Shown piece after piece: positions 21,801 through 62,622 of a stretch of DNA of 64,000 nucleotides. Under the pieces are notes generated by a model that did not search any database, was not told the DNA's origin, and saw only the letters and a program-made list of their open reading frames with translations. The stretch spans positions 18,600,001 through 18,664,000 of the forward strand of contig CM120641.1 in the NCBI GenBank assembly GCA_051362555.1, read 5' to 3'. The position numbers were made by a program, and so were the translations under genes. The DNA is from Lingula anatina (lineage: Eukaryota; Animalia; Brachiopoda). Positions within the stretch are counted from its first letter, which is position 1; each line of letters opens with the position of its first letter.

Positions 21801-24800
21801 AAATGATACATGTAACATAAAAGACTCCGTTCATATGGAAAGTCTATTTTCTAAAAATCTATTTTCTATTTGCGGTATCTTGTAATCACAGTCCCTGTGC
21901 CCTGAATATCCCGAGAATTAATTACAGCTTTGGAAGTAACTGGCTCGCGCCGCCAGTAATTACGCCGCGGGATATTCAGGGCACAGGGACCGTGATTACA
22001 AGATACCGTGAATAGAAAATAGATTTTTAGAAAATAGACTTGCAATGTGAACGGGGCCTAGGACCTGTGTTCTCCATCGTCCAAGTTATGGGCAATGTGG
22101 CCCCAAGGGGCCCTAGAATCTCCTTACCATGGCCACAGATTGATTTTTCACCTGAAATTCACAGATATGTAGCTAGTTTATTCTTGATGTTTTTTTTTTT
22201 TTTTTTTTTTTTTAATGTCCAGCAAGAATTTTTACATGGGATTTATTTCATCACTCAGATGGTCCTTGCAAAGAATAGGCCCTACACATGCATCATTAAG
22301 GTATTGCACAAGCTGCATGTAAAAATTACTTCTGTATTATCTTGCATGCAGCTTGTCAATTCACTCATAATGTTTCACCTACGGTGACTTGTCTTCCATC
22401 TATCACATAACTCGCTTCTAAATTAACAGTTGCCAGGGTGTCTGGGGTTTAACACCTGCTTTTCATTACATCCCTTTTAATTATCACCTTCTACGTAATC
22501 CTATGAAATAGTCCCGCAAATCATAAACTCTGATAATAATCTTAAATAGAGACAAAAAAAGAAGCTCAAGATACAGTTATGCAACAAATTTTTTCTTTGT
22601 TTTTGTTTTTTATAGATTTTGTGTATTTTGTTAATGAAAATATGTAACTGACTTTGTCAAGAGCCAAGTGTTACATGTATGAGGTGTACGAGACATACAC
22701 ATTTATATAAATAATTGGTGATTTAAGTTACATAACCATTATAAAAGAGAAGAGAAAATGTCACTGGTTTTTCCATACAATCCCTATTCTTGCATGTACA
22801 AATTCTGTTAATGACTATTGGCAGGTTCTATTCTATTCTGACTGAAACGTGCATGATTTCATTCCAAAGTCCATAAGTTGACAACTACATTGCTAACAAG
22901 AGATCTCATATTCCAACAATGTTCCAAGGTGCCTGTGAGAGTGGGATCTTTTTGTAACCAGTCCGTCTTGATTCCTAGGGGTGATGAACTGTTTCTGCGG
23001 AGAATTTATCACAGAAAACTGTTTTTAATTTTTAAGCTGAACCTAGTGTGAATGGTACAACTTAGTATTCCATGAAGTAGCAGCTGTTTGCAGTGAGTTA
23101 TCTCCATAAAACAAAAAGCAATAACACTCATTAAAAGATAGTAGTTTCATAATGGAAGTCGCTTAATCATGTTCCAAAGCTGCAGTATCTCTGGGTGTTC
23201 TTTTCCCTGGGGGAGGAGACAACAAACACTGAGTGACGGAGATTGTGAACACAAACAGAATTTGCTGGAAAATCACTTTGGTTTTTTGTGTGACAATGAC
23301 ATAATTCTATTCCCCATGGTGGTACAACTCCTATAGCAGGTCACCATCGATATGGCACAGGTACCATTTTATGAGATATCATACAAATTCAATCTTAGTT
23401 TTTTCAGATAAATGTACAATAAATAAACTAAGTAATTTAAATTAAATTGAGCAACAAAAATATTTTGTAATTGTTTCCACAATACTGTATGGTGGCTTTG
23501 CAGTGCAAATTACATTGTAACCTGTCAGTGAACTTGCAGTAGTATAAAAAGCTGTGTGTAAGCAAAACCATTTAAGTGCACAATAAACTAAAATATATTA
23601 TAATATATAGTATAATACTATAATATTATTTAAACAGGTGCCATACCAGATATGTAAAACTCTTTAGGTTTCAATTACTAAGTTTTCAAGCCTTTTTTTT
23701 TTGTTTTTGTTTAGGTTACTAAATGGTGTGATGGCTATTAAAGATTGCACTGTGCTTACAAACTATGACATGTACATAGGGATTGCTACGAATTTTTTTT
23801 CAATTATTATATTCCACATCATACACACACTTTCAAACTGAACAGAAGTGACCTTGGGGAATCTTAATAGAAAAATAATATGAAATATACCCGGTAGGTC
23901 AAAGAAAATGGAAAAAAAAAGAGTGAAATGTTTCAAACTGCTGGAAAAATCAAATGGCCATTGTTTATTACCAAATTTACAAATACATATTTTTCAAATG
24001 TATCCTAGCTATCCACGATTTCCAAATCTACCTTGAAAAAATAAGTTTTATCCTACTTTTGAATCTCAGCTCAACCCCACTCTGCATTTTAGGTCAATGT
24101 TTTACACTATTTTAATTAAATTATTTAGTTCTAAATGTTTCTTGTAACATTTAGACGACCATGTCTCCCCTTCAGCAGAAAAAATAACATCAGGTACATT
24201 TATTTGAGAAGGCTGTAGCACTTTAAGGTCTGCATTAGGAAAGAGAAGTAGCTTTGCTTTGACATAAGAAAATGACTTTGGGACAATTGCAGATAGTGTA
24301 CCTTAAGACACTGTACTAGATTTTCATAACTATCTCAAAAGGCATTCACCAGAAAAGACCTCATCAATGTTTCCACATTCTGTTGGTTATGACGTGAATA
24401 ACAAACATTCACATCTCCATCTGTTTAACAAAACAGCTTACAGCCTTGAAAAGGGACTTTCAGGCATGAACTCATCTTATACTTTGCTTATTTTCAGGGA
24501 AACATGATGCAAGAGCTGAGAAGACATGAAAACTGCAAATGGATACCCATAAAATCTTCTCATTGCATACATTACAAAAAGAAAAGAAGATAATGCATTC
24601 CATTCTTCTATTCATGTATCAAGTTTCCGGACAGGTGGCAAATTCTGAAACTGAATTATGCTTGGTTAAGAAACCAATTTTTCTTATAAAAAATATCTCA
24701 GCTCAAAGTCCACAACAAGGTCAAGACTCAGAATGTTTTAACCACAAAAATCAACAGTTAAAGCAGTGTTAGATCACTATCAGCGCAAAGTGGACCAGAT

Positions 24801-27800
24801 GAATGATTCCATGATCACAATGGACTCCAACTACACTAATTTAACAACCAGCGAGGAAGATTTTCAAAGAAGATCACTTGAAGCCATTATCATCGGAACC
24901 ATATTCCTCCTAGCCATTATTCTTTGCTCAATCTTGGGTAACATCTCTGTCATTGTAGCAGTATGGACATATCCAAAATTATATGAGCAGAAGGCAAGTA
25001 TCTTCATAGTAAACCTCAGCATAACAGACTTGTGCAACGCCATATTTGTTATGATATGGACATGCTGTGCCCTGATCACAGACGGATGGCCATTTGGAAT
25101 CATGTGGTGCCGATTCCAATGTGCCTTTAACTACTGGTTGATCATTGTGTCAATGCAGACTTTGGCCTGGATAAGTGTTGACCGCTATCACTCCATAGCT
25201 CATCCTCTCCAATATGCAGACTATCTGACAACGAAGAAAATCATGATGATGCTCAGTTTTAGTTGGATTCTAGGACTCATCTTTGCCTTTGTGCCCGTGT
25301 TTCTAGACTGGGTGCACTATGACTATTGGGAGGTTGTTTGTGCTATTAACTGGCACTACCAACAAGATATGGCTGTATTTTATGTTGTCATAGCATTTAT
25401 TGTGTGTTTTCTCATCCCCGCTGTAATAATGGTTGGATGTTACAGCTGCATAGCCTATGCAGCCAACAAGTGTGCACGGAGAATTGAAGCTTGTGTTGTG
25501 CCACGTTCTCAGTCGATTGCCAGCGACTCCAACAGCACTGGCACCTCACAGACAACTAAGCTCATTCAAAGCAATACGAAGGTAATCAAGAGTCTCATAA
25601 TTGTTGTGGCTGTCTTTTTTGTATGCATGACCCCATTTTGTGTAACAAAACTTTTGAAAGTTGTATTCTATAACAATATTGTCCCTGGCTGGCTGAATGC
25701 TTTTTCCACTTGGGTGCAGTTTCTGAGCAGTGCCTCCAATCCTTTCATATATGGTATATTTAGAAAGGATTTCCGTATGGCCTTTAGAAGGCAGATTCGC
25801 TTTTTAAACTGTGGATTGTTTAATGTAGAACTTAGTTCTGAGTCCACATAGCTGTACATGCCCATAGGGCCATATTGCAATACAAAAAGCAGGTTTTATT
25901 AGAAGTGTAAAGAGTCTTATCATTAGAGTTTTATAATAGTAAAGGCCTAAAAAACCATTTTGTATTCTTATTTAGACTTTTGCTGTGCACTTTGATTTCT
26001 ATTATATCCTATTGATTTCTATATAATGGAAGACAGCAGATGTAAATTACATGGAAAGTCATAGTTAAAAGTAAAATGAGTTATGTTTGATGTAATGAAT
26101 GTGCAGTTATTTCTTGTAAATTTCTGAAGTCAGAAAATTTTTTGTAAGTGTTTATTGGTAATAAGTTTAAGTATAAGAAAAAGGGAAAAGATGTTGGCAA
26201 TTTTTTAAAAATATTAACTCTTATAAAAAATAGGGCATTCAAGTCTTGTGAGTAAAAAAACTTTGTCTTGTAGTCATGGTAGTAATTACTATGTTTCTCT
26301 ATCATTATCACTGTTATTGTTCATATGAATATTCTTGTAATTTATTTATTAATCTATTTATCCATTTGTTTTGCTGTAGTATGTGGATTCAGAGGTTGGC
26401 GAACTCACCATACAACAAACTAATTATTTTGGGCTTGTAACTATTTTTAAGCAAGTCTTTACAGTATTATTTCACAGTATTAATTGACATACGTCTGACA
26501 AAAACAAAGCTGTGTTTACATTAAATGTCAACCAGAAACAGTCTTGCTGACATCAGCAGGCAAACAGAATTCCTAGGGTCCCAAATCATTTTCAGAATTT
26601 CTAAACCCATGTTGGACTATCAGGTCATCTGATCAGTTGTAGAGCTTCAGGTTTAAATTAAGTCAGTTGTGAACACGGCTAGAGTATATTTTTCACGTGG
26701 CAATTAAGTAAGACCAGTGAATATTAGGTTATAAATACTTTGTCTATCCATATTTACATCAATTTGTAATATATATCCGTCACACTATATATTTATATAC
26801 ATTTAATGTAAATAAATGTCATACTGTCTATAAGATATCTGTATGTCATACATACAAAATGTTTTTATCAAGACCTTTAAATGTCATTTGTAATGCTGCC
26901 TTAGGAACTTCAGTTCATTCAAATAAATGTGGAAACATTTCTAAAACATGAGCAAAAGCTATCTATGTAGAAATCCAGAAGAAATACTACTGTAAAAAAA
27001 TCTCAAGAGCATTTTCTCTCACAAAAACTTCAAATGTCTACACAGAGCATAGACATTCTCTTTGCCAGATTCTCTGAACACCATATGGCCATGTTCATTC
27101 TTATCCACATGTCACATTAAAGGAATTGATGAACTTTAAACATGATTTTGTTGTCAACCTTACACCATCCATGATGTAAATAAAAATCAGTAAGACAGAG
27201 GTTATGGCTATAGTGATGTAACCAGATTACTGGGTGTAGCATAAAAACAACCTATCATCTGGTCTGGATCTGATTTAAAACAAGTATCAATTTTGGCAAA
27301 CTCTGGGAACTCTCCAATCTCTCAAATAAAGTTATATATAAGAAAGCACTCAATTAATGATTCGCCACCAAAACCTAATTGATTCCAAGTTAACTTATTC
27401 TTGAAATTAAATCAAAATTAGAACCTGCCCCCCCCCCCCCCCCCATTCTGTTATATATTACCTTTAACAAGGAATTTTTGTTAGATTTTGGTAGGGATCT
27501 ACTAATTAATAAATAATGGAGATTGAGCTGCAGAGGTCTGTGCTTTGATTGTTTTTCTAGTTTTTAGTTTAAATTACATACTTATCAAAATATGTCTTTT
27601 TGCTTTCTGCTAATTTCCTGTCAAAAAAAGAACTTTTTCCCTAGAAATACATTTTCCCTAGAAAAATAAAATCAGAATCACATCAACTGGCTGAGAGGAA
27701 ACAATGGCAGGAAATCCCATTACTTTCATCCTTTTTCTTATCAGATGAAATATATTTTTAATTAAATAAATATTAAGTACTTTCAAAAAAAAAAGACAAA

Positions 27801-53034: not shown

Positions 53035-56000
53035 TTTTTTTTGCATACAGTAAAATCTTTGGGAGTTTGTTTTTGCATCAATGATTTCAGAATAACTTAC
53101 AACCTTTTTATCTCCTACTTGGTTTTACTTGAAATCTTTAAAGTAGTTTCTAAATATTGTAATTGCACAATTTGGAATTTGTCTATGTATTTTCAAGATT
53201 TAAAGCAAGGAGATGCTTTATGGCAGCCTACAAAGGACACCAAAAAGGATTCAACTGCAGTTTGTAAGAATGAAGATGAAAGTGATGTCACTTCTCCAGT
53301 GAAAAGTCTGGCACTGGCTGACAGGGTGGACCTAGACTTCACAGAGAAACTCTGGAACATTTTGATTGGTGGGTGTACCACAATAATTTAAAGATTTATA
53401 TGCACTCAAGTATTTACACAGACTGCCGTTATGCACACAAATACAATCCCAGCTAAATGATATTGTGATATGCTCATTTTTATGCTTTGAGAAGAGAAAA
53501 CTATATCAAGTCATTTATTTTACTTATAAAATAATTTAAGGGAAATTAATTAATATAATTTCAGATTGTTCTTCTTATGATGAATTGGTCAAGTGCTTTC
53601 AGTATGTCTTACGCATTTTAAAAAATGGAGAACTTCAGCCCATGGTGAGTAATCCCACTAATAATTTGTGACAATATTTTACAAATTGTGTGACTAAGAG
53701 ATGATATGGAAGCATCACATTTTTCACAGATATTTCTTTTAAATGACATACATGTCCCTATAACTGTCAAACCCTAACCTAATTATGTAATGTAATCATT
53801 AATATAATAACCAGGCTATTAAGTTGTCAATCTCTCATATGAAAATGGATGGATCCAGTCAAATATACTTTTTGATTTGATAAATGGCTTAAGTTATCTT
53901 TGGGCAAAAAATAAACATTTTTACTGCCTGTACACAGGTGCATGCCAGTAACCACACACAGCTAGCAGAACTGGTCCGGGCCTCCTACTATAACAAACTG
54001 GTGATGCCAGACCTGGCCGGACTGCTGCCACTGGAGCTTTTGGTGGAGATAGGTGTTGAGAAACTAAGAAGAGACTATAGTCATGCATTCATTGGTGAGT
54101 TAGAGTGAGAGGAGGTTGGGGGGAGAGGGTTAGTATGGGACTGGTGGAATCGAATTCTTGTCAGTCAGTAGGTGCATTTTTCCTGTCAGTCAAATGAAAG
54201 ACAGGCGTTATAAAAAAAATTTGAAAAATAAAGTCTTTGATTAATAACCACTTCATAACAGTGGGTTTTGTTTAAAAAAATGATGGAATAAATTACGTCA
54301 ATTTGACATTTTGTTTTCAGGAAAAAAGTATTGAAAACACCCATTCCTGGGGTATTTCACTAATGATTTGCCCCAAATCAAACAACTGAAAATGTTTATA
54401 CAAACGCTTAAAACACAAGGATCTGTCCATTTTAATTTCACTGCCAATTTTCCTAAAAGTATGGTGATCCAGGTCACCTTGAAGACATTGTCTGGCACTG
54501 ACTGTTTAGTGAATTATGATCTGTAGGGAAGAGTTTTTCAGATGTGTCTGCTATTTACTTTCATATATCAGACAAAGATTTGGTGACAGCTGATCAGCTG
54601 ACATATTTCCTGGAGAAGAACCTGGACCTCCATGAGAAGCTTAGTCGACTTGAAAAGCTGCACAATGTGCTGGAGCTGGTTGTGATGATGAAGATGTTCC
54701 TCAACATACCTCAAATTACACTCAGCTCAGCCGCAAGGTGGGCAACTTCATAAGTTATACTTTCTGACATGTATAGGCCTGGCAAGAGTGGCTACTGATA
54801 AATAATACTGGTTACAGAAAATTTGTTTTGGAAGTGGGCTCCTTTGAAAACCTTTTTATTTATTTATTTTTGTATGAAATTTATTATAAATTTCCAAGTT
54901 GTGTACATTGTGTAAGTTACTTAAGTGAAGAGTTAATAGCTTGAAGTTTAATAAGATAAAAGTAGCATATACACAACACAAAATGCTTTATGTTGCCTTT
55001 TTTTTTTTCATTTTCTCTATAAAACTGTTGTCAGTATCATTTTACTTTAAAAAGTGAATATATGGCCAATTAAAAAATTTTAATAAAACTCATAACTAAG
55101 ATGTTGCTGATATATAAACTTTACTTCCAGACAAGCCATGAATCATTACCAAATCCACAATGTTGATCCAGCCCATGTCTTCCACATCCCTGTTGCTACC
55201 TCAGCTGTCAGAGGAGTATTTGATACGTAAGTGTTTCTGTTTTGGTATATAACAAGGCTTTGCCTTTGTTTTACAAGAGTTCTGATTTTAGAGTTTCAAG
55301 AGTTCTGAGTTTAGTTTTGAGTATTTGATAATGTAGCATGCCTGAAAAAACAACCGTCTACATCAGGGGTGGATTGAGGCTGTCTTCTGGGTCTTTCCGA
55401 AGGTATGCCATCTCTGGATCCGCCTCTGTACATGGGTGAAAGTTTTCAGGATTTTTCCTCAATTTCAGGATTTTCAGTCTTCATTTCAATAATTTGGAAT
55501 TTTACCTGGCTGGATAAGCTTATTACATAGAACATCTCTAGAGTGTGATATTGGAGTATAGTTTTAAAGGTGTTTTATGGGTTAACTAAATCTCTTTCTT
55601 CTTGGTATGTATCTCAAATAATACACTGCCACCCTCTTGCGATATATGCGATGAACACCTCTCACTGATGCTCAAGGTGTTCTGGCACATATTGCTTGGG
55701 GGACAGTGTACTGTCTCACACATAATGTATTTCTTTTGAACTTTGAACCCAGTCAGTGGGCCTCAGATAATCCTCTGGTGTTATGTGGAACATATCCTCA
55801 GTGTAGGTATGAAGAAATTCAAATTTGGGACGTTGCCTTGGCTCCAGTGACCAACACTTGAGAAGCTCTTTATATATTTCTTGGGGGAATTCATAGTGCT
55901 CATTGTGGGGAATAGGCAGGTGGTATCCTTCTTGTACTTTCTGCAATACTTCCATCTCGGTCATGCCTAAAGAATGTTTGCATGCTTTTTGACCAATATA

Positions 56001-59000
56001 AGTATGTTAACTTAAACAGTGACAGGCAATTCAGAAAAAGATGAGAAAATCTGTTATTTAGATTATAATTTCATTCGCCAAAAAGAACAGATTCATGCTG
56101 TTGTTACTGTATTGTATGAGCTCAACTGAGGTTCAGAAATTCATGATAATGAAAAGTATTGCAGACCAAATTTCTACAAATTTACATTTACAATAAAGAG
56201 AAGAAAATTTACTCTGATCTCTTAATCATGCAAATCAAATTTGAATTTTAGAAGACAGCACTTGCATAGCCACATTAACAAAGTTAACGGAGGTGAGTGA
56301 AATAATTCCAAAATGCACCCCTGTATATTGTTATATTATCTTTATGTTATTGTTATGCTTACCTTCATATGGTAGTTTCCCCAAAGTTGCCATTTCAACC
56401 ATAACAACAGCAAAGGACCAGACATCAGACATTGGAGATATTCCCTTCTTACCATACTTGATAACCTCGGGTGCAGCCCACCGGATTGGAGGAGTGAAGT
56501 CTTTTAAGTGAAATGTATCAAAGTTACCTGTACTTCTCTGCAGATAGGCTCATATTACTGCAGACATAAGCTAAATTATGACAGTAGTTTACATGGGTGT
56601 GTGGTGTGTGGGTAGAAGTATGCACAGGTACATATGTGCATTTTAATTACTGTATTTTTATTAAAATTATTGTATTTTAACTATCTCATTAAAACAAGTG
56701 GGCAAAGTACCTTTGGCAGCTTTTTTCCATGGACACAATTCCACTTTGACTTTAAAGTTATCTGGATCAGATGTTAGGATAAATACATTGGTAGACTTCA
56801 AATAACCATGAGCAAAATGTATTTCTTCAAGGTATGCCATTCCTGCAGCAATCTATAAAAAGAAAGTAAAAAATCTGATATTAGACCTTTACCATCTGTC
56901 CTAGTAAAATTCTAATATCACGAAACAATTGTTGCATGAAATATTATGATTAAGTCAAGGATATGATCAAAATGTTATCATTTAGGAGAAATTGATGAGT
57001 CTGTCAGTTCAGTCAGTGAAATTTGTAATATTCAGTCCCCAAACCTGAGAGGCTATTTGTAACAGAAGTCTCAGTCCTAAGGTTTCCCCCATATCTTCAG
57101 CCATAAAGTCAAGCAAAGACCCTTGAGGGAAATGTTCTGTGGCCACAAAGTACGGCTCTCCCTCCAGGCAGGTCAACATGGTGGCCAGGTGTGGGTGTTG
57201 AAAGGAGGCGAGTTCAGTAGCTTGACTATGCAGTTGTTGTTCATCCACAGAGTTAATGTTGAGGACATTGATGGTAGCAGGCATGCCATAAACAGTCCCT
57301 GTAAAATTGAGCTCAGTCAGTAACAGTTTGTGTGAATTTGAAAGTGAAAGTTCAAGAATGATTCTGTTCAAATTAATCAATTGTGGTTTCAAAGTACCTA
57401 CCTACCCACACCTCTCTGCAGTCTGTTTTATGAAGGAGTTCAGTATAGTCCACAGCATGTCTGTCCAGTAGTAACTTTGGTCTCAAGTTTGTATTTTCAT
57501 AAACATCCAAATCTAATGCCTGTGACATCTAAAGAAAAATGAAATTATGTATGAAAACTTGAAGCCCCTGTTGGGTTTCTGCTCTTGTTCCACTTTGCTG
57601 TATTGACACTGTGTACTAGTTACATCTGTCACAAAGTTGAGCGAGAAACTATAAGATATTTTCAAGTTTAACAAGTACATGTAACATTGTATTAATCAGT
57701 GTACATTATGTCATCAGTTCTCTGAATGTTTTAGTTTCATTGTGCAATTTTGTGCTACTTTTACATTTATTGTGGTCTTTATTTATTTATTTTTTTTTTA
57801 TTGAGCATATACAAACAAAATACAACTGTGGTCTTTATAACTAACCCGTTTCAGTGAAGCCTCTTGCATTTCCTTTACTGTTTCCAAGTTGAACATGTGA
57901 ATGTAGTCCTCATCCTGGTCTTCTTCATCCTCCTCCTTAGCATTTATTGACCCTTTGTTGCCATCTTCAACATTAGCATAGTTTCCATGTTGTGCCTTTT
58001 CCAGTGGCTCAGTGTTTTCATAGTCAGGAACTTTAGAATCTTCTGTTGTACAAGTAACACCAGTCAACATTCCTGTGAGGTATTTATGGTCAAATTGTGT
58101 TGAATCTCCAGTGTCTGAGTTCATCATTGCTACAACTGATGCGTAGAAGTTGGACTCAAGGTTTTCTGCCAAGTGCTTCATCTCGGAAGATTTATTTACA
58201 ATGGCTTGGTATTCTTCTGCAAAATCTGTAGTAACATGTTGGAGATGTTTTCGAAGATTGAGGATTTCTTCTGGTGAACCTTTGACCACAGTGGCATTTG
58301 CATCCTTTATGGCAGCTTCAGTCTTCTGAATTTGATCAACGATTTGTTTCACAGTGGCTGTAAGTGTCTCTTTTCCAGTGCTCGTTTCTTTGTCAGCCAT
58401 CATCAATAAATTTTGTGCAATCTTGTCAATAGTGTCACATAGTTTCTGTTTCCTGGTCATCATGTCACATTTGATCTGTGATGTCTTTTCAGAAAGGAGG
58501 TTTTCTTCTCCAGAAATGTCTTTTTGTAAGTCTTGAAGTTGTATAAGGTCATCTTGCATTTTTTGCAGTTGACTTTTGATGGTCTTAGAAGCGGCTTTGG
58601 TGGCAGAGAGAAGGCTGACTGTTTGGTGACCTTGGTGTTCTTCATCTTGACATTGTATGCACAGCAGTAGTTCGTCGTCTTTGCAAACATTTATAATTGT
58701 TTTTTTGTGTTTTTGACACAATGGCTTGTAAATTTCGTCCTTTGCTGCTGCTTTATCAAAAGTGGGCTTCGGGGGCACTTTTGGTGGCACATTTATTTTT
58801 TTTAGAGTATGCTTCTGCATTATTTTGTGTTGGTGAATTGTTTGAGAGCAGTTGTTACAAAGCTCACTGTGGCACTGTTCACAGGTGATCTCTGCAGCAT
58901 TAATTTCACAGTTGTTGCACTTTGTACTTGCAGCCATCTCAGCCTTGCTTGTAATGTATTCTGGAAAAGATATAAGTTGTCATAAGTTCATAATATTACT

Positions 59001-60639
59001 GCTAAATATATGTTTAAATGTACCATTGATTTTTATGGTATTATAAATTAAATATGATATATAAAATGGAATATATTTCTATTAGTTGTTTACAATGTAT
59101 TTATTGTGAAATATTAATCTCATACAAACAGCTGTTATCCCTTTAATTTGTTTAACAGACTGAAAGAACATATGCTTTTCAGAATTTTCTTCTCCTATTT
59201 CTGTACGTCATACTAGAATTTTACCATGCCACACAGTGAACTCCCCCATCTCAACTTATATTTCATGAAACTCCTACATAATTAAGTTGACTGCAGACAG
59301 AATTTGAGTTTCCAGTTACCCTATTTCAGTTGATAATAAATTTAAAATACTACCATTTTTATAAGTAATGCGCAAGGGTTGTCAAATGAGAATTGAGTAT
59401 TGAAGCTGTTTGAAACCTAGAGTGACATGTAATGTTTGAAACTTATAGTAACCTTACAGCTTTGTATGTATATAACATTGTAAAATTAACAGGCCAATAT
59501 ATCTGAACAAGACCTCAGATTTGGCTCTACGTGTAACTCTGCAGAAAAGAAAGGATTTTATGCCTATTTAGACATTTCTCTAGCCAAATATGGGAAGTGA
59601 AAGTAATATTTACTTAAAGTTACATTCCATGGGGTTTTCCCGCCAAAATTAATATCAAGAGATTCTCTGCACTCCTAGTAAGTGATTTAGGGACCATTCA
59701 CACAGATATTTGTATTGATCTATCTCCCTGGGGAGTCTCACTTAATTGCTATCAACGTAACCGGCTTAAATATCTGTCATGCCTAGTAAAGCTCTTTGAG
59801 GGTAATTGTCTTTTACCCCATAGCTGATTCCGTAGGCATGACAGACATTTAAGCCGGTTAGATGATAGCTATTTAGTGGGAACCCAGTCTTAGTTATCCC
59901 TCCTAGACCAAAGTTTTTCACGAGGTAAAAATGCTGTTTCCAGCATTACTTACATAACACGTACATGTTGTTTATCCAATGTATTTTTCTTTCACTGCAC
60001 TTTCATTGCCATGGTGCTGTTTCATGCAACCAGAGGTAAGCAGGTGCCTTTTTTGCTGTTATCAGTATTAACCTAATTTTTCAGCATTCAGCCTCATACT
60101 TGGCAAGTGGAAATGATAAGCAATGAGCAGGACGCAGAGGTATCAAGTATTTATCACATAAGCTGTAAACCTCCTGTGGATGAAATGTATTCAGAGCCCG
60201 GTAAGTGCTTGTGTTTATATTTCAGTATCCCTACGAGGTGAAGGTTGTTAAACAACAATAAAAGTAGGTTATTGGTTCACATAAAGTGATTGGGTGTTCC
60301 TTATGGAATGAGGAAGTTCTTTTTTTTTTTTTTTTTCAAGAAAGGGTTTTGTTTCTATTGGAATTGTAAACATTTTCACTTTAAAGAAATACCAAGGGTA
60401 AATATTTTATTAAATAGAATTTTTAGTGATATATTTGATTACAATTAAAACAAAATTGGAGTGGGAATGTTTGAGCAACAGCAACATTTTGCACTATTTT
60501 CACGGTCAGTTTTTTGTGTTTAATTGCTACAAACCATGACCGTAGGAACTTCTATATTTCAGACACAGAGACCTCTTCAGACCAACATTTATTATACTAC
60601 TTCACACGGATGGATTCAAGTGTTCATATTTGGGAATGA
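48852..60639 (+). CDS. ZWILCH: Protein zwilch homolog (RZZ kinetochore complex), ~617 aa
   Basis: 16 phase-consistent exons: 48852-48892, 49178-49253, 49537-49647, 50047-50228, 50538-50716, 51286-51356, 51591-51752, 52185-52256, 52799-52895, 53198-53368, 53565-53644, 53938-54094, 54572-54737, 55131-55226, 60085-60200, 60563-60639 (1854 nt including TGA). Motifs recognisable against human Zwilch as I recall it: ARYLVSQY..LLPLWVYCD, DLDFTEKLW, SYDELVKCF..GELQP, LVEIGVEKLRRDY, LEKLHNVLEL, HVFHIPV, PHTWQVEM. The start codon is the least certain part. Confidence 0.9.
52963..53042. repeat. (TTTA)n / poly-T low-complexity tract
   Basis: Directly visible. Confidence 0.9.
55716..58937 (-). CDS. B-box/B-box/coiled-coil protein fused to a Src-family-derived pseudokinase domain, ~676 aa, nested antisense in a ZWILCH intron
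   Basis: Exons 57846-58937, 57402-57528, 57045-57298, 56711-56852, 56363-56527 (acceptor less certain) and 55716-55966 join in frame (2031 nt). Two Cys/His B-box patterns, then a heptad-rich coiled coil. Kinase landmarks: EVWVG, QHPHL, GSLLDF, QIAAGMAYLE, PIRWAAPE, SDVWSF, G.LPYEGM, CWSLEPRQRPKFEFL. Upstream acceptor at 58960 implies a non-coding first exon. Confidence 0.85.
59690..59890. mobile_element. MITE family B copy (right end eroded), hairpin core
   Basis: Inverted arms TAACCGGCTTAAATATCTGTCATGCCTA / TAGGCATGACAGACATTTAAGCCGGTTA; shares GATCTATC..GGGGAGTCTCACT with 61925-62149. Confidence 0.65.
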
Positions 60640-61924: not shown

Positions 61925-62149
61925 AACCCCATTTCCATAGATTTTAGATCGATCTATCCCTGTGGGGAGTCTCACTAGATTACTGTCAGCTTAGCCAGCT
62001 TAATCGTCTGTCCCGACTACTGAAAGCTGTAAGGGGGTAATTAACTATGGTGCGCGCTTGACTGACTGCAATTTAGCGTGAACCCCCAGGGAGTTAGGTC
62101 GATCTAAATCTTAATCTCTGGATCGATCTAAATCTCTGGGAATACACCC
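61925..62149. mobile_element. MITE family B copy
   Basis: Inverted termini containing TTTAGATCGATC / GATCGATCTAAA; related to 59690-59890; flanked by TAA and TTA. Confidence 0.65.
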
Positions 62150-62152
62150 TTA

Positions 62153-62361
62153 GGGACAGTTCATATGAAAAATCTATTTTCTAAAAAACTACTTCCTATT
62201 CGCGGTATCTTGTGATCACGGTCTGTGCCCTGAATAGCCCGCGGCGTAATTACTGGCAGCACGACCCAGTTACTTCCAAAGCTGTAATTAATTCTCAGCT
62301 GCGCTTGGAGTGATCACAAGATACCACGAATAGAAAATAGATTTTTCATATGAACGGTCCC
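62153..62361. mobile_element. Fold-back MITE family A, copy 3
   Basis: TIR GGGACAGTTCATATGAAAAATCTATTTTCT / AGAAAATAGATTTTTCATATGAACGGTCCC; core is the reverse complement of that in 21823-22058. Confidence 0.85.
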
Positions 62362-62364
62362 GTA

Positions 62365-62622
62365 GGCTTCATTCACATGCAATGTCTATTTTCTAAATTC
62401 TATTTTCTATTTGCGGTATGTCTTATGATCACGGTCTGTGCCCTGAATATCCCGCCGCGTAATTACTGGCAGCGCGTCCCAGTTACTATAAGTTACTATA
62501 ACTAACTGGCTCGCGCTGCCAGTAATTACGCGGCGGGATATTCAGGGCACAGACAGTGATCATAAGATACCGCGAATAGAAAATAGATTTTTAGAAAATA
62601 GACATTCCATGTGAACAAAGCC
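62365..62622. mobile_element. Fold-back MITE family A, copy 4
   Basis: Near-identical to 15511-15767, including the central GTTACTATAA duplication. Confidence 0.9.

Follow-up and report, generated by a model that had tools for sequence, protein, structure and literature searches.

The locus and its genes

The DNA analysed here is a stretch of 64,000 nucleotides (nt) from the brachiopod Lingula anatina (assembly GCA_051362555.1, contig CM120641.1, forward-strand positions 18,600,001 to 18,664,000), called the window in what follows; all positions are counted within it. The window is AT-rich animal DNA and contains, on its minus strand, a gene of six coding exons (ATG at 58937, stop at 55716) for a protein of 667 amino acids (aa), in which B-boxes and a TRIM-like coiled coil precede a degenerate tyrosine-kinase domain. 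From the evidence below, this protein is in our view a real and expressed pseudokinase, probably under selection and unusual for its TRIM-like architecture; to date it has been seen only in Lingula.

The coding sequence of the exon model (58937-57846, 57528-57402, 57298-57045, 56852-56711, 56500-56363 and 55966-55716) has zero internal stops. An earlier note on this DNA had placed the kinase-like element at 56363..57528, a stretch that holds four of the six coding exons and forms the kinase half together with the last one. This location was right for the catalytic motifs quoted there, but the M of LPYEGM and the CW..EP..RP.F motif lie in the last exon (55966-55716), and the N-terminal half had been missed, as the gene runs upstream to 58937 with its B-boxes and coiled coil. 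The exons, and the intron of another gene that houses them, are the following.

59954..59983, minus strand: 3' end of an upstream exon, probably non-coding, with a GTAAGT donor below 59954; matched by eye at 28 of 30 letters by the loose ends of 6 X15 reads at 58960
57846..58960, minus strand: coding exon 1 (aa 1-364), ATG at 58937; both B-boxes, the coiled coil and the larger part of the acidic linker
57402..57528, minus strand: coding exon 2 (aa 365-406), from read joints and alignment; Y374 motif, beta1, degenerate G-loop HKTDCR, beta2
57045..57298, minus strand: coding exon 3 (aa 407-491); beta3 ATIN (A>T415, K>N417), alphaC E>Q432, hinge, alphaD-alphaE
56711..56852, minus strand: coding exon 4 (aa 492-538); HGY..N (R>G507, D>Y508, N513 kept), beta7 L>F515, DFG>LCP (530-532), short activation loop
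56363..56500, minus strand: coding exon 5 (aa 539-584); PIRWAAPE, SDVWSF, LPYE
55716..55966, minus strand: coding exon 6 (aa 585-667 and stop); alphaG-alphaI, R630, Src-like tail with Y651 at 55769-55767
55227..60084, plus strand: host intron of the Zwilch gene (GT..AG, 4858 nt); joint 55226-60085 with 19 reads in X12 and 3 reads in X19, frame open across the joint

Splice evidence was taken from six RNA read runs, with joints of fewer than three reads left out. Reads support all five coding introns, each with GT-AG borders when read on the minus strand; X15 and X16, which are stranded, agree in orientation. The joints 57846-57528, 57402-57298, 57045-56852, 56711-56500 and 56363-55966 are crossed by 6/0/12/10, 5/5/20/3, 3/0/9/6, 10/0/11/6 and 2/2/7/9 reads, respectively, in X15/X16/X18/X20. 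No alternative joint of at least three reads was listed for this gene in the RNA runs, and a different splice path restoring the motifs, which the earlier note had named as counter-evidence to its own claim, was not encountered. Two acceptors were rejected: one at 57519, where the reads use 57528, and a predicted one at 56527, which would have lengthened the activation loop. Since the reads connect 56711 with 56500 and pass over the closer AG at 56527, the activation loop is left without Tyr and, in the alignment described below, is eight residues shorter than that of Src.

The junction of the upstream exon to 58960 (6 reads) places a TAA in frame eight codons ahead of the ATG, so that the isoform seen in the reads encodes no RING upstream. 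A protein search with exon 3 gave a single match, identical over the whole exon, to L. anatina XP_013385541.2 (667 aa), which is named 'tyrosine-protein kinase Fer isoform X2' at NCBI; the exon-model protein differs from this RefSeq record at 9 aa, none of them in the kinase motifs. RefSeq isoform X1 (P0002) has 38 extra N-terminal residues, none of which is Cys; for its extra N-terminal exon (aa 1-31) no match was found within the 64-kb window, and this exon may lie beyond the window or be an artefact.

The gene is nested antisense in an intron of the Zwilch kinetochore gene, identified by a Pfam Zwilch match on the upstream plus-strand exons, and all six coding exons lie inside that intron. 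Reads from the nested gene are present at low depth in five of the six runs, with X12 practically devoid of them. We also observed that X12 has Zwilch reads and none from the nested gene and that X15 has the nested gene and practically no Zwilch, with one run for each pattern.

Loss of catalytic residues

The motifs quoted in the earlier note proved to be real, and all of them were found in minus-strand exons in tyrosine-kinase registers.

57438-57421, minus strand: LLHKTD, in the G-loop (GxGxxG) register
57278-57267, minus strand: ATIN, in the VAIK register
from 57227, minus strand: SQA, in the alphaC-Glu register
56810-56787, minus strand: HGYLKSTN, in the HRD..N register
56747-56730, minus strand: KVELCP, in the DFG register
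56489-56466, minus strand: PIRWAAPE, kept
56429-56412, minus strand: SDVWSF, kept

The kinase fold is recognised by Pfam (PF07714, E=4.5e-44). In an alignment of 70 rows, the query and 69 related tyrosine kinases, the beta3 Lys (N417), the HRD Asp (Y508), the DFG (LCP, L530), the alphaC Glu (Q432) and the three G-loop glycines (HKTDCR) are replaced; HMMER pairwise alignments place the gaps of the DFG region differently, and the query DFG is absent there too. Retained are H506 (HRD His), N513 (catalytic-loop Asn), V404 (beta2 Val), T460/E461 (hinge), W546, APE, D564 and R630. According to PMC13519141, a pseudokinase is defined by the absence of at least one of VAIK-Lys, HRD-Asp and DFG-Asp, and by this sequence definition the Lingula protein, in which all three are missing, is one. 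The claim that all catalytic motifs were lost was slightly overstated, because H506, N513, V404 and T460/E461 are kept; it holds for the Lys, the alphaC Glu, the HRD Asp, the DFG and the G-loop glycines.

To evaluate whether the loss favours ATP and catalytic residues, we used the 63 positions with a conservation of 90% or more among those 46 of the 69 rows that are catalytically intact. With 13 ATP/catalytic positions picked by textbook role after the alignment had been viewed, 11 of the 13 are altered vs 14 of the 50 other conserved positions (Fisher p=3e-4), and changes are non-conservative at 10 of 13 vs 9 of 50; the bias reported earlier is thus beyond chance. Identity to a fish Src along the domain is 17/78 in the N-lobe, 21/42 over alphaD-alphaE, 6/33 from the catalytic to the activation loop and 45/97 beyond. 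Among the comparison rows, 19 of 69 lack at least one of the three K/D/D residues and one lacks all three, this last row being possibly misaligned.

As a separate observation, the fetched proteins P0003 and P0010-P0012 contain between 3 and 10 Src-like kinase domains in tandem, with HRD/DFG motifs that are degenerate in many of them, and the first kinase domain of P0003 carries N for the beta3 Lys, as the Lingula protein does.

Predicted fold and ATP pocket

An AlphaFold model of aa 365-667, built on the 70-row alignment, reached a predicted local distance difference test score (pLDDT) of 88.8 and a predicted template modelling score (pTM) of 0.87; since orthologues are absent from the alignment, the model is drawn towards canonical kinases. 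Its nearest solved folds are Src, Hck and Fgr (Foldseek, VIA), with Z 33-35, where differences below 1 count as ties, and root-mean-square deviations of 1.4-2.6 A for the tighter matches. Many of the closest fold entries are labelled inactive, autoinhibited or alphaC-out/C-helix-out. The domain is predicted still to fold as a Src-type kinase.

According to PMC2639636, VRK3 does not bind ATP: its G-loop is degraded, a polar residue replaces the beta3 Ala and beta7 carries Phe, and S201 and F313 fill the adenine pocket. By alignment, T415 and F515, the latter two residues past the catalytic-loop Asn, would be the equivalents of VRK3 S201 and F313; Phe occurs at the F515 position in 5 of the 69 rows. 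These VRK3-like substitutions suggest a class 1 pseudokinase, a class defined by the absence of both ATP and Mg binding in thermal-shift assays.

Signs of purifying selection on the kinase half

Variants between Lingula samples were read at 41 sites in 39 codons, chosen by read support, out of at least 111 sites and with fixed differences and polymorphisms mixed; all the counts given here refer to this partial set. In the stretch 55600-58990, about 100 sites separate runs X18-X20 from the window. The kinase half has 15 silent and 8 replacement variants and a ratio of replacement to silent variation per site (pN/pS) of about 0.19; with transition bias allowed for, p=1e-4. Over aa 395-560, the degenerate N-lobe and catalytic region, there are 10 silent and 0 replacement variants (p=2e-6) and in the distal C-lobe (aa 561-667) 2 silent and 7 replacement, the boundary between the two having been picked after the data were viewed. 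None of the variants falls in the codons of the degenerate motifs or of the linker tyrosines, and the only indel is a deletion of 3 nt, in frame, at the C-terminus.

These variants indicate purifying selection on the kinase half and, together with the spliced joints and the open frame, they show a transcribed, spliced and intact gene, very probably functional, rather than a pseudogene. The silent and replacement pattern weighs against decay and also against the substrate-binding C-lobe as the selected part. The earlier proposal of a selected pseudokinase is therefore supported by the open frame of 667 codons, the five canonical read-supported introns, the low pN/pS and the RefSeq individual, whose motifs are degenerate in the same way, but the role that it gave to a kept substrate-binding C-lobe is not: the kept residues are mostly of the fold core, and the constraint is found on aa 395-560 and not on aa 561-667. 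The C-lobe replacements at 561, 617 and 628 are also present in the RefSeq individual and may therefore be polymorphisms of the window haplotype.

Concerning the samples themselves, X18-X20 bear the same species label and show about 100 exonic differences (roughly 4-5%) vs 8 in X15/X16, possibly a cryptic lineage.

The B-box/coiled-coil arm and the acidic linker

Upstream of the kinase domain, the protein has the following features.

58806..58919, minus strand: B-box 1 (aa 7-44), aligned with TRIM28 B-box 1; Pfam PF22586, E=5.7e-5, 23.6 bits, cut-off of 27 not reached
58767..58784, minus strand: PxxPxK motif PKVPPK (aa 52-57), between the B-boxes; predicted, near the CrkII SH3 ligand PxLPxK with V for L
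58611..58727, minus strand: B-box 2 (aa 71-109); Pfam PF00643, E=2.3e-13, above cut-off
58122..58601, minus strand: TRIM-like coiled-coil helices (about aa 113-272), from PDB matches; hydrophobic period of 3.5-3.7 in three of four segments
57490..58052, minus strand: acidic linker (aa 296-384), split by the intron 57529-57845; Y306-ENT, Y320-ANV, Y345-IHM, Y374-ENT

All eight PDB matches of exon 1 are TRIM proteins (TRIM28, TRIM3, TRIM5 and TRIM29), and those to TRIM28, TRIM3 and TRIM5 span B-box and coiled coil with E from 9e-6 to 5e-3. As leads only, the look-alikes of the N-terminal half in the ESM Atlas are mollusc-rich B-box clusters with scores of 0.85-0.86. No RING was found in the 667 aa by the Pfam scan. 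A TRIM coiled coil forms an antiparallel dimer, as stated in PMC4455283, and by homology to TRIM the same arrangement is predicted here.

The linker has 23 D/E in 90 residues, and its tyrosines are predicted to form three Grb2-type YxN sites and one YxxM site. Phosphorylated YxxM is an SH2 site of PI3K p85 type. In shuffle tests devised after the motifs had been noticed, three YxN sites had p=0.002 and the fit of all four tyrosines to YxN or YxxM had p=1.4e-4. Outside the linker only one of 17 tyrosines fits either motif, and three YxN sites within any 89 residues were found in one of 156 other fetched proteins. This sole other cluster belongs to P0116, a tandem-kinase protein with four YxN sites in an acidic linker (aa 71-159). 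In PMC10279719, pYxN is the Grb2 SH2 consensus and PxLPxK that of the CrkII SH3 domain.

Relatives and origin of the protein

The top single-domain sequence matches are of the Src family (Fyn/Src at about 155 bits, fish Src at 159 bits), with the kinase domain being about 32-38% identical to any relative. Its four introns probably match four of the five intron sites of Src-family kinase domains, both in location and in phase. Y651 is in register with the tail Tyr of Src/Fyn, a column in which 43 of the 69 comparison rows have Tyr. Neither SH3 nor SH2 was found in the protein by the Pfam scan, and the columns of GxM and GxKF read NSV and DFTP, so that both motifs are lost; PMC8662651 gives GxM (beta3-alphaC) and GxKF (activation loop) as the regulatory motifs of SrcM. 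The only SH3-like match in the window, at about 20.6 kb, was considered as a lost piece of Src and rejected, as it belongs to a spectrin gene.

The 'Fer' name of the RefSeq record is unsupported, with no F-BAR/FCH or SH2 in the Pfam scan, and Fer/Fes are absent from the 60 best PDB sequence matches and from 50 fold rows. It looks like a mis-annotation that masks the dead domain. No publication on this gene turned up among the listings of a literature search that covered mainly open-access journals.

In the ESM Atlas, a cluster with kinase and B-box (64 members, 72% of them with B-box, 425 aa) has a feature score of 0.96, and the pair of domains thus occurs elsewhere.

A proposed scaffold that would work without catalysis

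We lean, with modest confidence, towards an ATP-free, dimeric and catalytically dead scaffold that recruits SH2 and SH3 adaptors and works like PEAK/Pragmin by convergence. The pseudokinase would bind neither Mg nor ATP because its G-loop is glycine-free and T415 and F515 stand at the pocket-filling positions of VRK3. The coiled coil would make a TRIM-style antiparallel dimer and so join two pseudokinase domains, and an active Src-family kinase would phosphorylate the linker tyrosines in trans, giving three pYxN sites of Grb2 type and one pYxxM site of PI3K p85 type. PxxPxK may bind an SH3 domain of Crk or Src type, and the rigid pseudokinase would offer a protein-binding surface, most likely on the N-lobe side. 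Its origin would be the fusion of a single-exon B-box/coiled-coil gene with a duplicated Src-family kinase gene minus SH3-SH2, probably in the brachiopod lineage.

Several observations weigh against this proposal. The linker tests were designed with the motifs already in view, and PKVPPK deviates from the PxLPxK consensus. The other kinases in the alignment behind the structural model are mostly active and bias its fold towards theirs, and modelling of the whole protein from its sequence alone gave no usable fold (pLDDT 33.7). Some nucleotide binding is possible, given that H506, N513 and the hinge remain and that R402 stands at the third G-loop glycine. The distal C-lobe shows no constraint, that of the N-terminal part (aa 1-384, 6 silent and 10 replacement variants) is not significant (p=0.21), and the variant set is partial and mixed. 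Protein searches by exon 3 in longer proteins (1 match from 40 candidates), by the whole protein (8 from 7991) and by the N-terminal half (1 from 3700) found no orthologue outside Lingula, and among the best 150 of 1.84 billion representatives the top non-self identity was 40% and none had both B-box and kinase. It should be noted that searches seeded by words have little power to detect distant relatives and that brachiopod proteomes are perhaps few, which makes this absence weak evidence. Three trees, which used 58, 29 and 17 of 215 extracted domains with no Fer, Csk or Tec reference identified among them, leave the kinase domain on a long branch in an open polytomy; approximately unbiased (AU) tests reject none of the Src, Frk/Src42A, Abl and receptor-kinase placements, with p of 0.13-0.40 for three of them.

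The constraint on the N-lobe and catalytic region, which is the strongest in the protein, would suit an allosteric regulator or decoy, in which the dead domain would directly contact an active kinase of the Src family, or Csk, in the way that HER3 or JAK JH2 regulate their partners, with the tail Y651 as Csk substrate or Src SH2 ligand in trans and the linker motifs secondary. The tail Tyr is kept in the Src column despite the absent SH2, and, according to PMC13519141, pseudokinases commonly regulate active paralogues. We consider this unlikely as the sole explanation, as it leaves the four SH2-type linker motifs unexplained and the SrcM motifs are lost; it can hold together with the scaffold. 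Less probable still is a TRIM-like immune or stress sensor, with B-box/coiled-coil oligomers and the pseudokinase standing in for the usual C-terminal ligand-binding domain of TRIMs, so as to recognise a host or pathogen protein. The resemblance of the N-terminal half to mollusc-rich B-box clusters (leads only) and to TRIM structures is in line with it, the orphan status and long branch fit fast evolution and reads come from all runs but X12, but RING is absent and the reads' isoform has its in-frame stop ahead of the ATG.

The retained H506, N513 and hinge also bear on an atypical enzyme or nucleotide sensor, in which R402 (at the WNK-lysine position), K398 and N513 would take over, so that ATP is bound again or a non-canonical reaction becomes possible, and WNK, SelO, SidJ and POMK show, according to PMC13519141, that motif loss can mislead. 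With the catalytic Asp residues changed to Tyr and Leu, E529 as the sole acidic candidate in register, a fully degraded G-loop and VRK3-like pocket-filling substitutions, we regard this as very improbable. A recent duplicate in neutral decay, a chimera that is transcribed but serves no function under selection, is hardly credible: searches found the Lingula record only, reads are shallow and significant constraint is missing from the distal C-lobe and the N-terminal half, yet at such low identity to its relatives the gene keeps 667 codons with no stop or frameshift and five clean introns, its losses are focused on catalytic sites, aa 395-560 has no replacement variant and the only indel is in frame.

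A fuller version of the scaffold proposal can be put forward tentatively, and we think that it probably does not hold as a whole: a TRIM-class protein with a dead Src effector, forming a PEAK/Pragmin-like scaffold that a brachiopod put together independently from unrelated parts, with a TRIM B-box/coiled-coil dimeriser, a new Grb2/PI3K tyrosine array, a VRK3-like ATP-free lock and a Csk tail Tyr that engages Src/Csk in trans.

Pseudokinases are already known as a common class, and the 19 of 69 comparison rows mentioned above show that degeneration of a Src-like domain is nothing exceptional among the fetched relatives. The Lingula gene stands out in combining three features: all three catalytic residues are gone, a TRIM-type arm is attached and the SH2 docking motifs form a set that would not be expected statistically, all under the annotation of an ordinary Fer kinase. 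Should the scaffold proposal be true, the protein would exemplify a pseudokinase scaffold assembled convergently through exon shuffling, and would show in a natural test which surfaces of Src still count in the absence of catalysis. The reach of these findings is limited to one genus so far, in a non-model animal.

Other features of the window

A large gene resembling beta-heavy spectrin lies at 232-41152 on the minus strand, where translations of open reading frames (ORFs) show, by eye, exons for CH domains, spectrin repeats and SH3. Antisense within it, at 24742-25848 on the plus strand, is a second nested gene, an intronless ORF of 369 codons that is, by eye, like a rhodopsin-type G-protein-coupled receptor. 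Repeats at 61926-62500, 59072-59146 and 59520-59900 have very deep RNA coverage, and opposite-strand joints near 61943-62108 and 62191-62488 suggest inverted-repeat elements.

Comparison with known systems

The Src family (Src, Fyn, Lck; SrcM) provides the best sequence matches, the best folds and a tail Tyr in register. The Lingula protein differs from it in having no SH3, SH2 or N-terminal Gly2, in the loss of the Lys, Glu, HRD Asp, DFG, activation-loop Tyr, GxM and GxKF, and in an N-terminus made of B-boxes and coiled coil. Fer/Fes share with it the general plan of an N-terminal coiled-coil region and a C-terminal tyrosine-kinase-like domain, but no F-BAR/FCH and no SH2 were found in the Lingula protein.

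In VRK3 the degraded G-loop, the polar residue at the beta3 Ala position, the Phe two past the catalytic-loop Asn and the kept structural residues are similar; however, VRK3 is of the CK1 group and keeps the beta3 Lys, and its architecture is unrelated. TRIM28, TRIM3, TRIM5 and the RING-less TRIM20 have B-box 1, B-box 2 and coiled coil in the same canonical order, whereas the Lingula protein has no RING and carries a C-terminal pseudokinase where TRIMs have B30.2 or other domains. The C-terminal classes of TRIMs also include NHL and PHD-bromo. The Atlas cluster with kinase and B-box has the same two domain types, compared by features only, as it is unaligned.

PEAK1, Pragmin and PEAK3 dimerise and, according to PMC10279719, their pYxN is phosphorylated by Src for Grb2 and their PxLPxK serves CrkII. 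Their dimerising SHED domain flanks the kinase, whereas the Lingula pseudokinase domain is flanked by an acidic linker and a short tail and its TRIM-type coiled coil is far upstream; no PEAK entry is among the PDB sequence or fold matches listed. Both have a dead kinase domain, and they would share a helical dimer module (by homology in Lingula) and a disordered region with pYxN and PxxPxK sites; in the Lingula protein three YxN are present by sequence and PKVPPK is a near match to PxLPxK. The likeness to the PEAKs is probably not that of a family member but functional and convergent.

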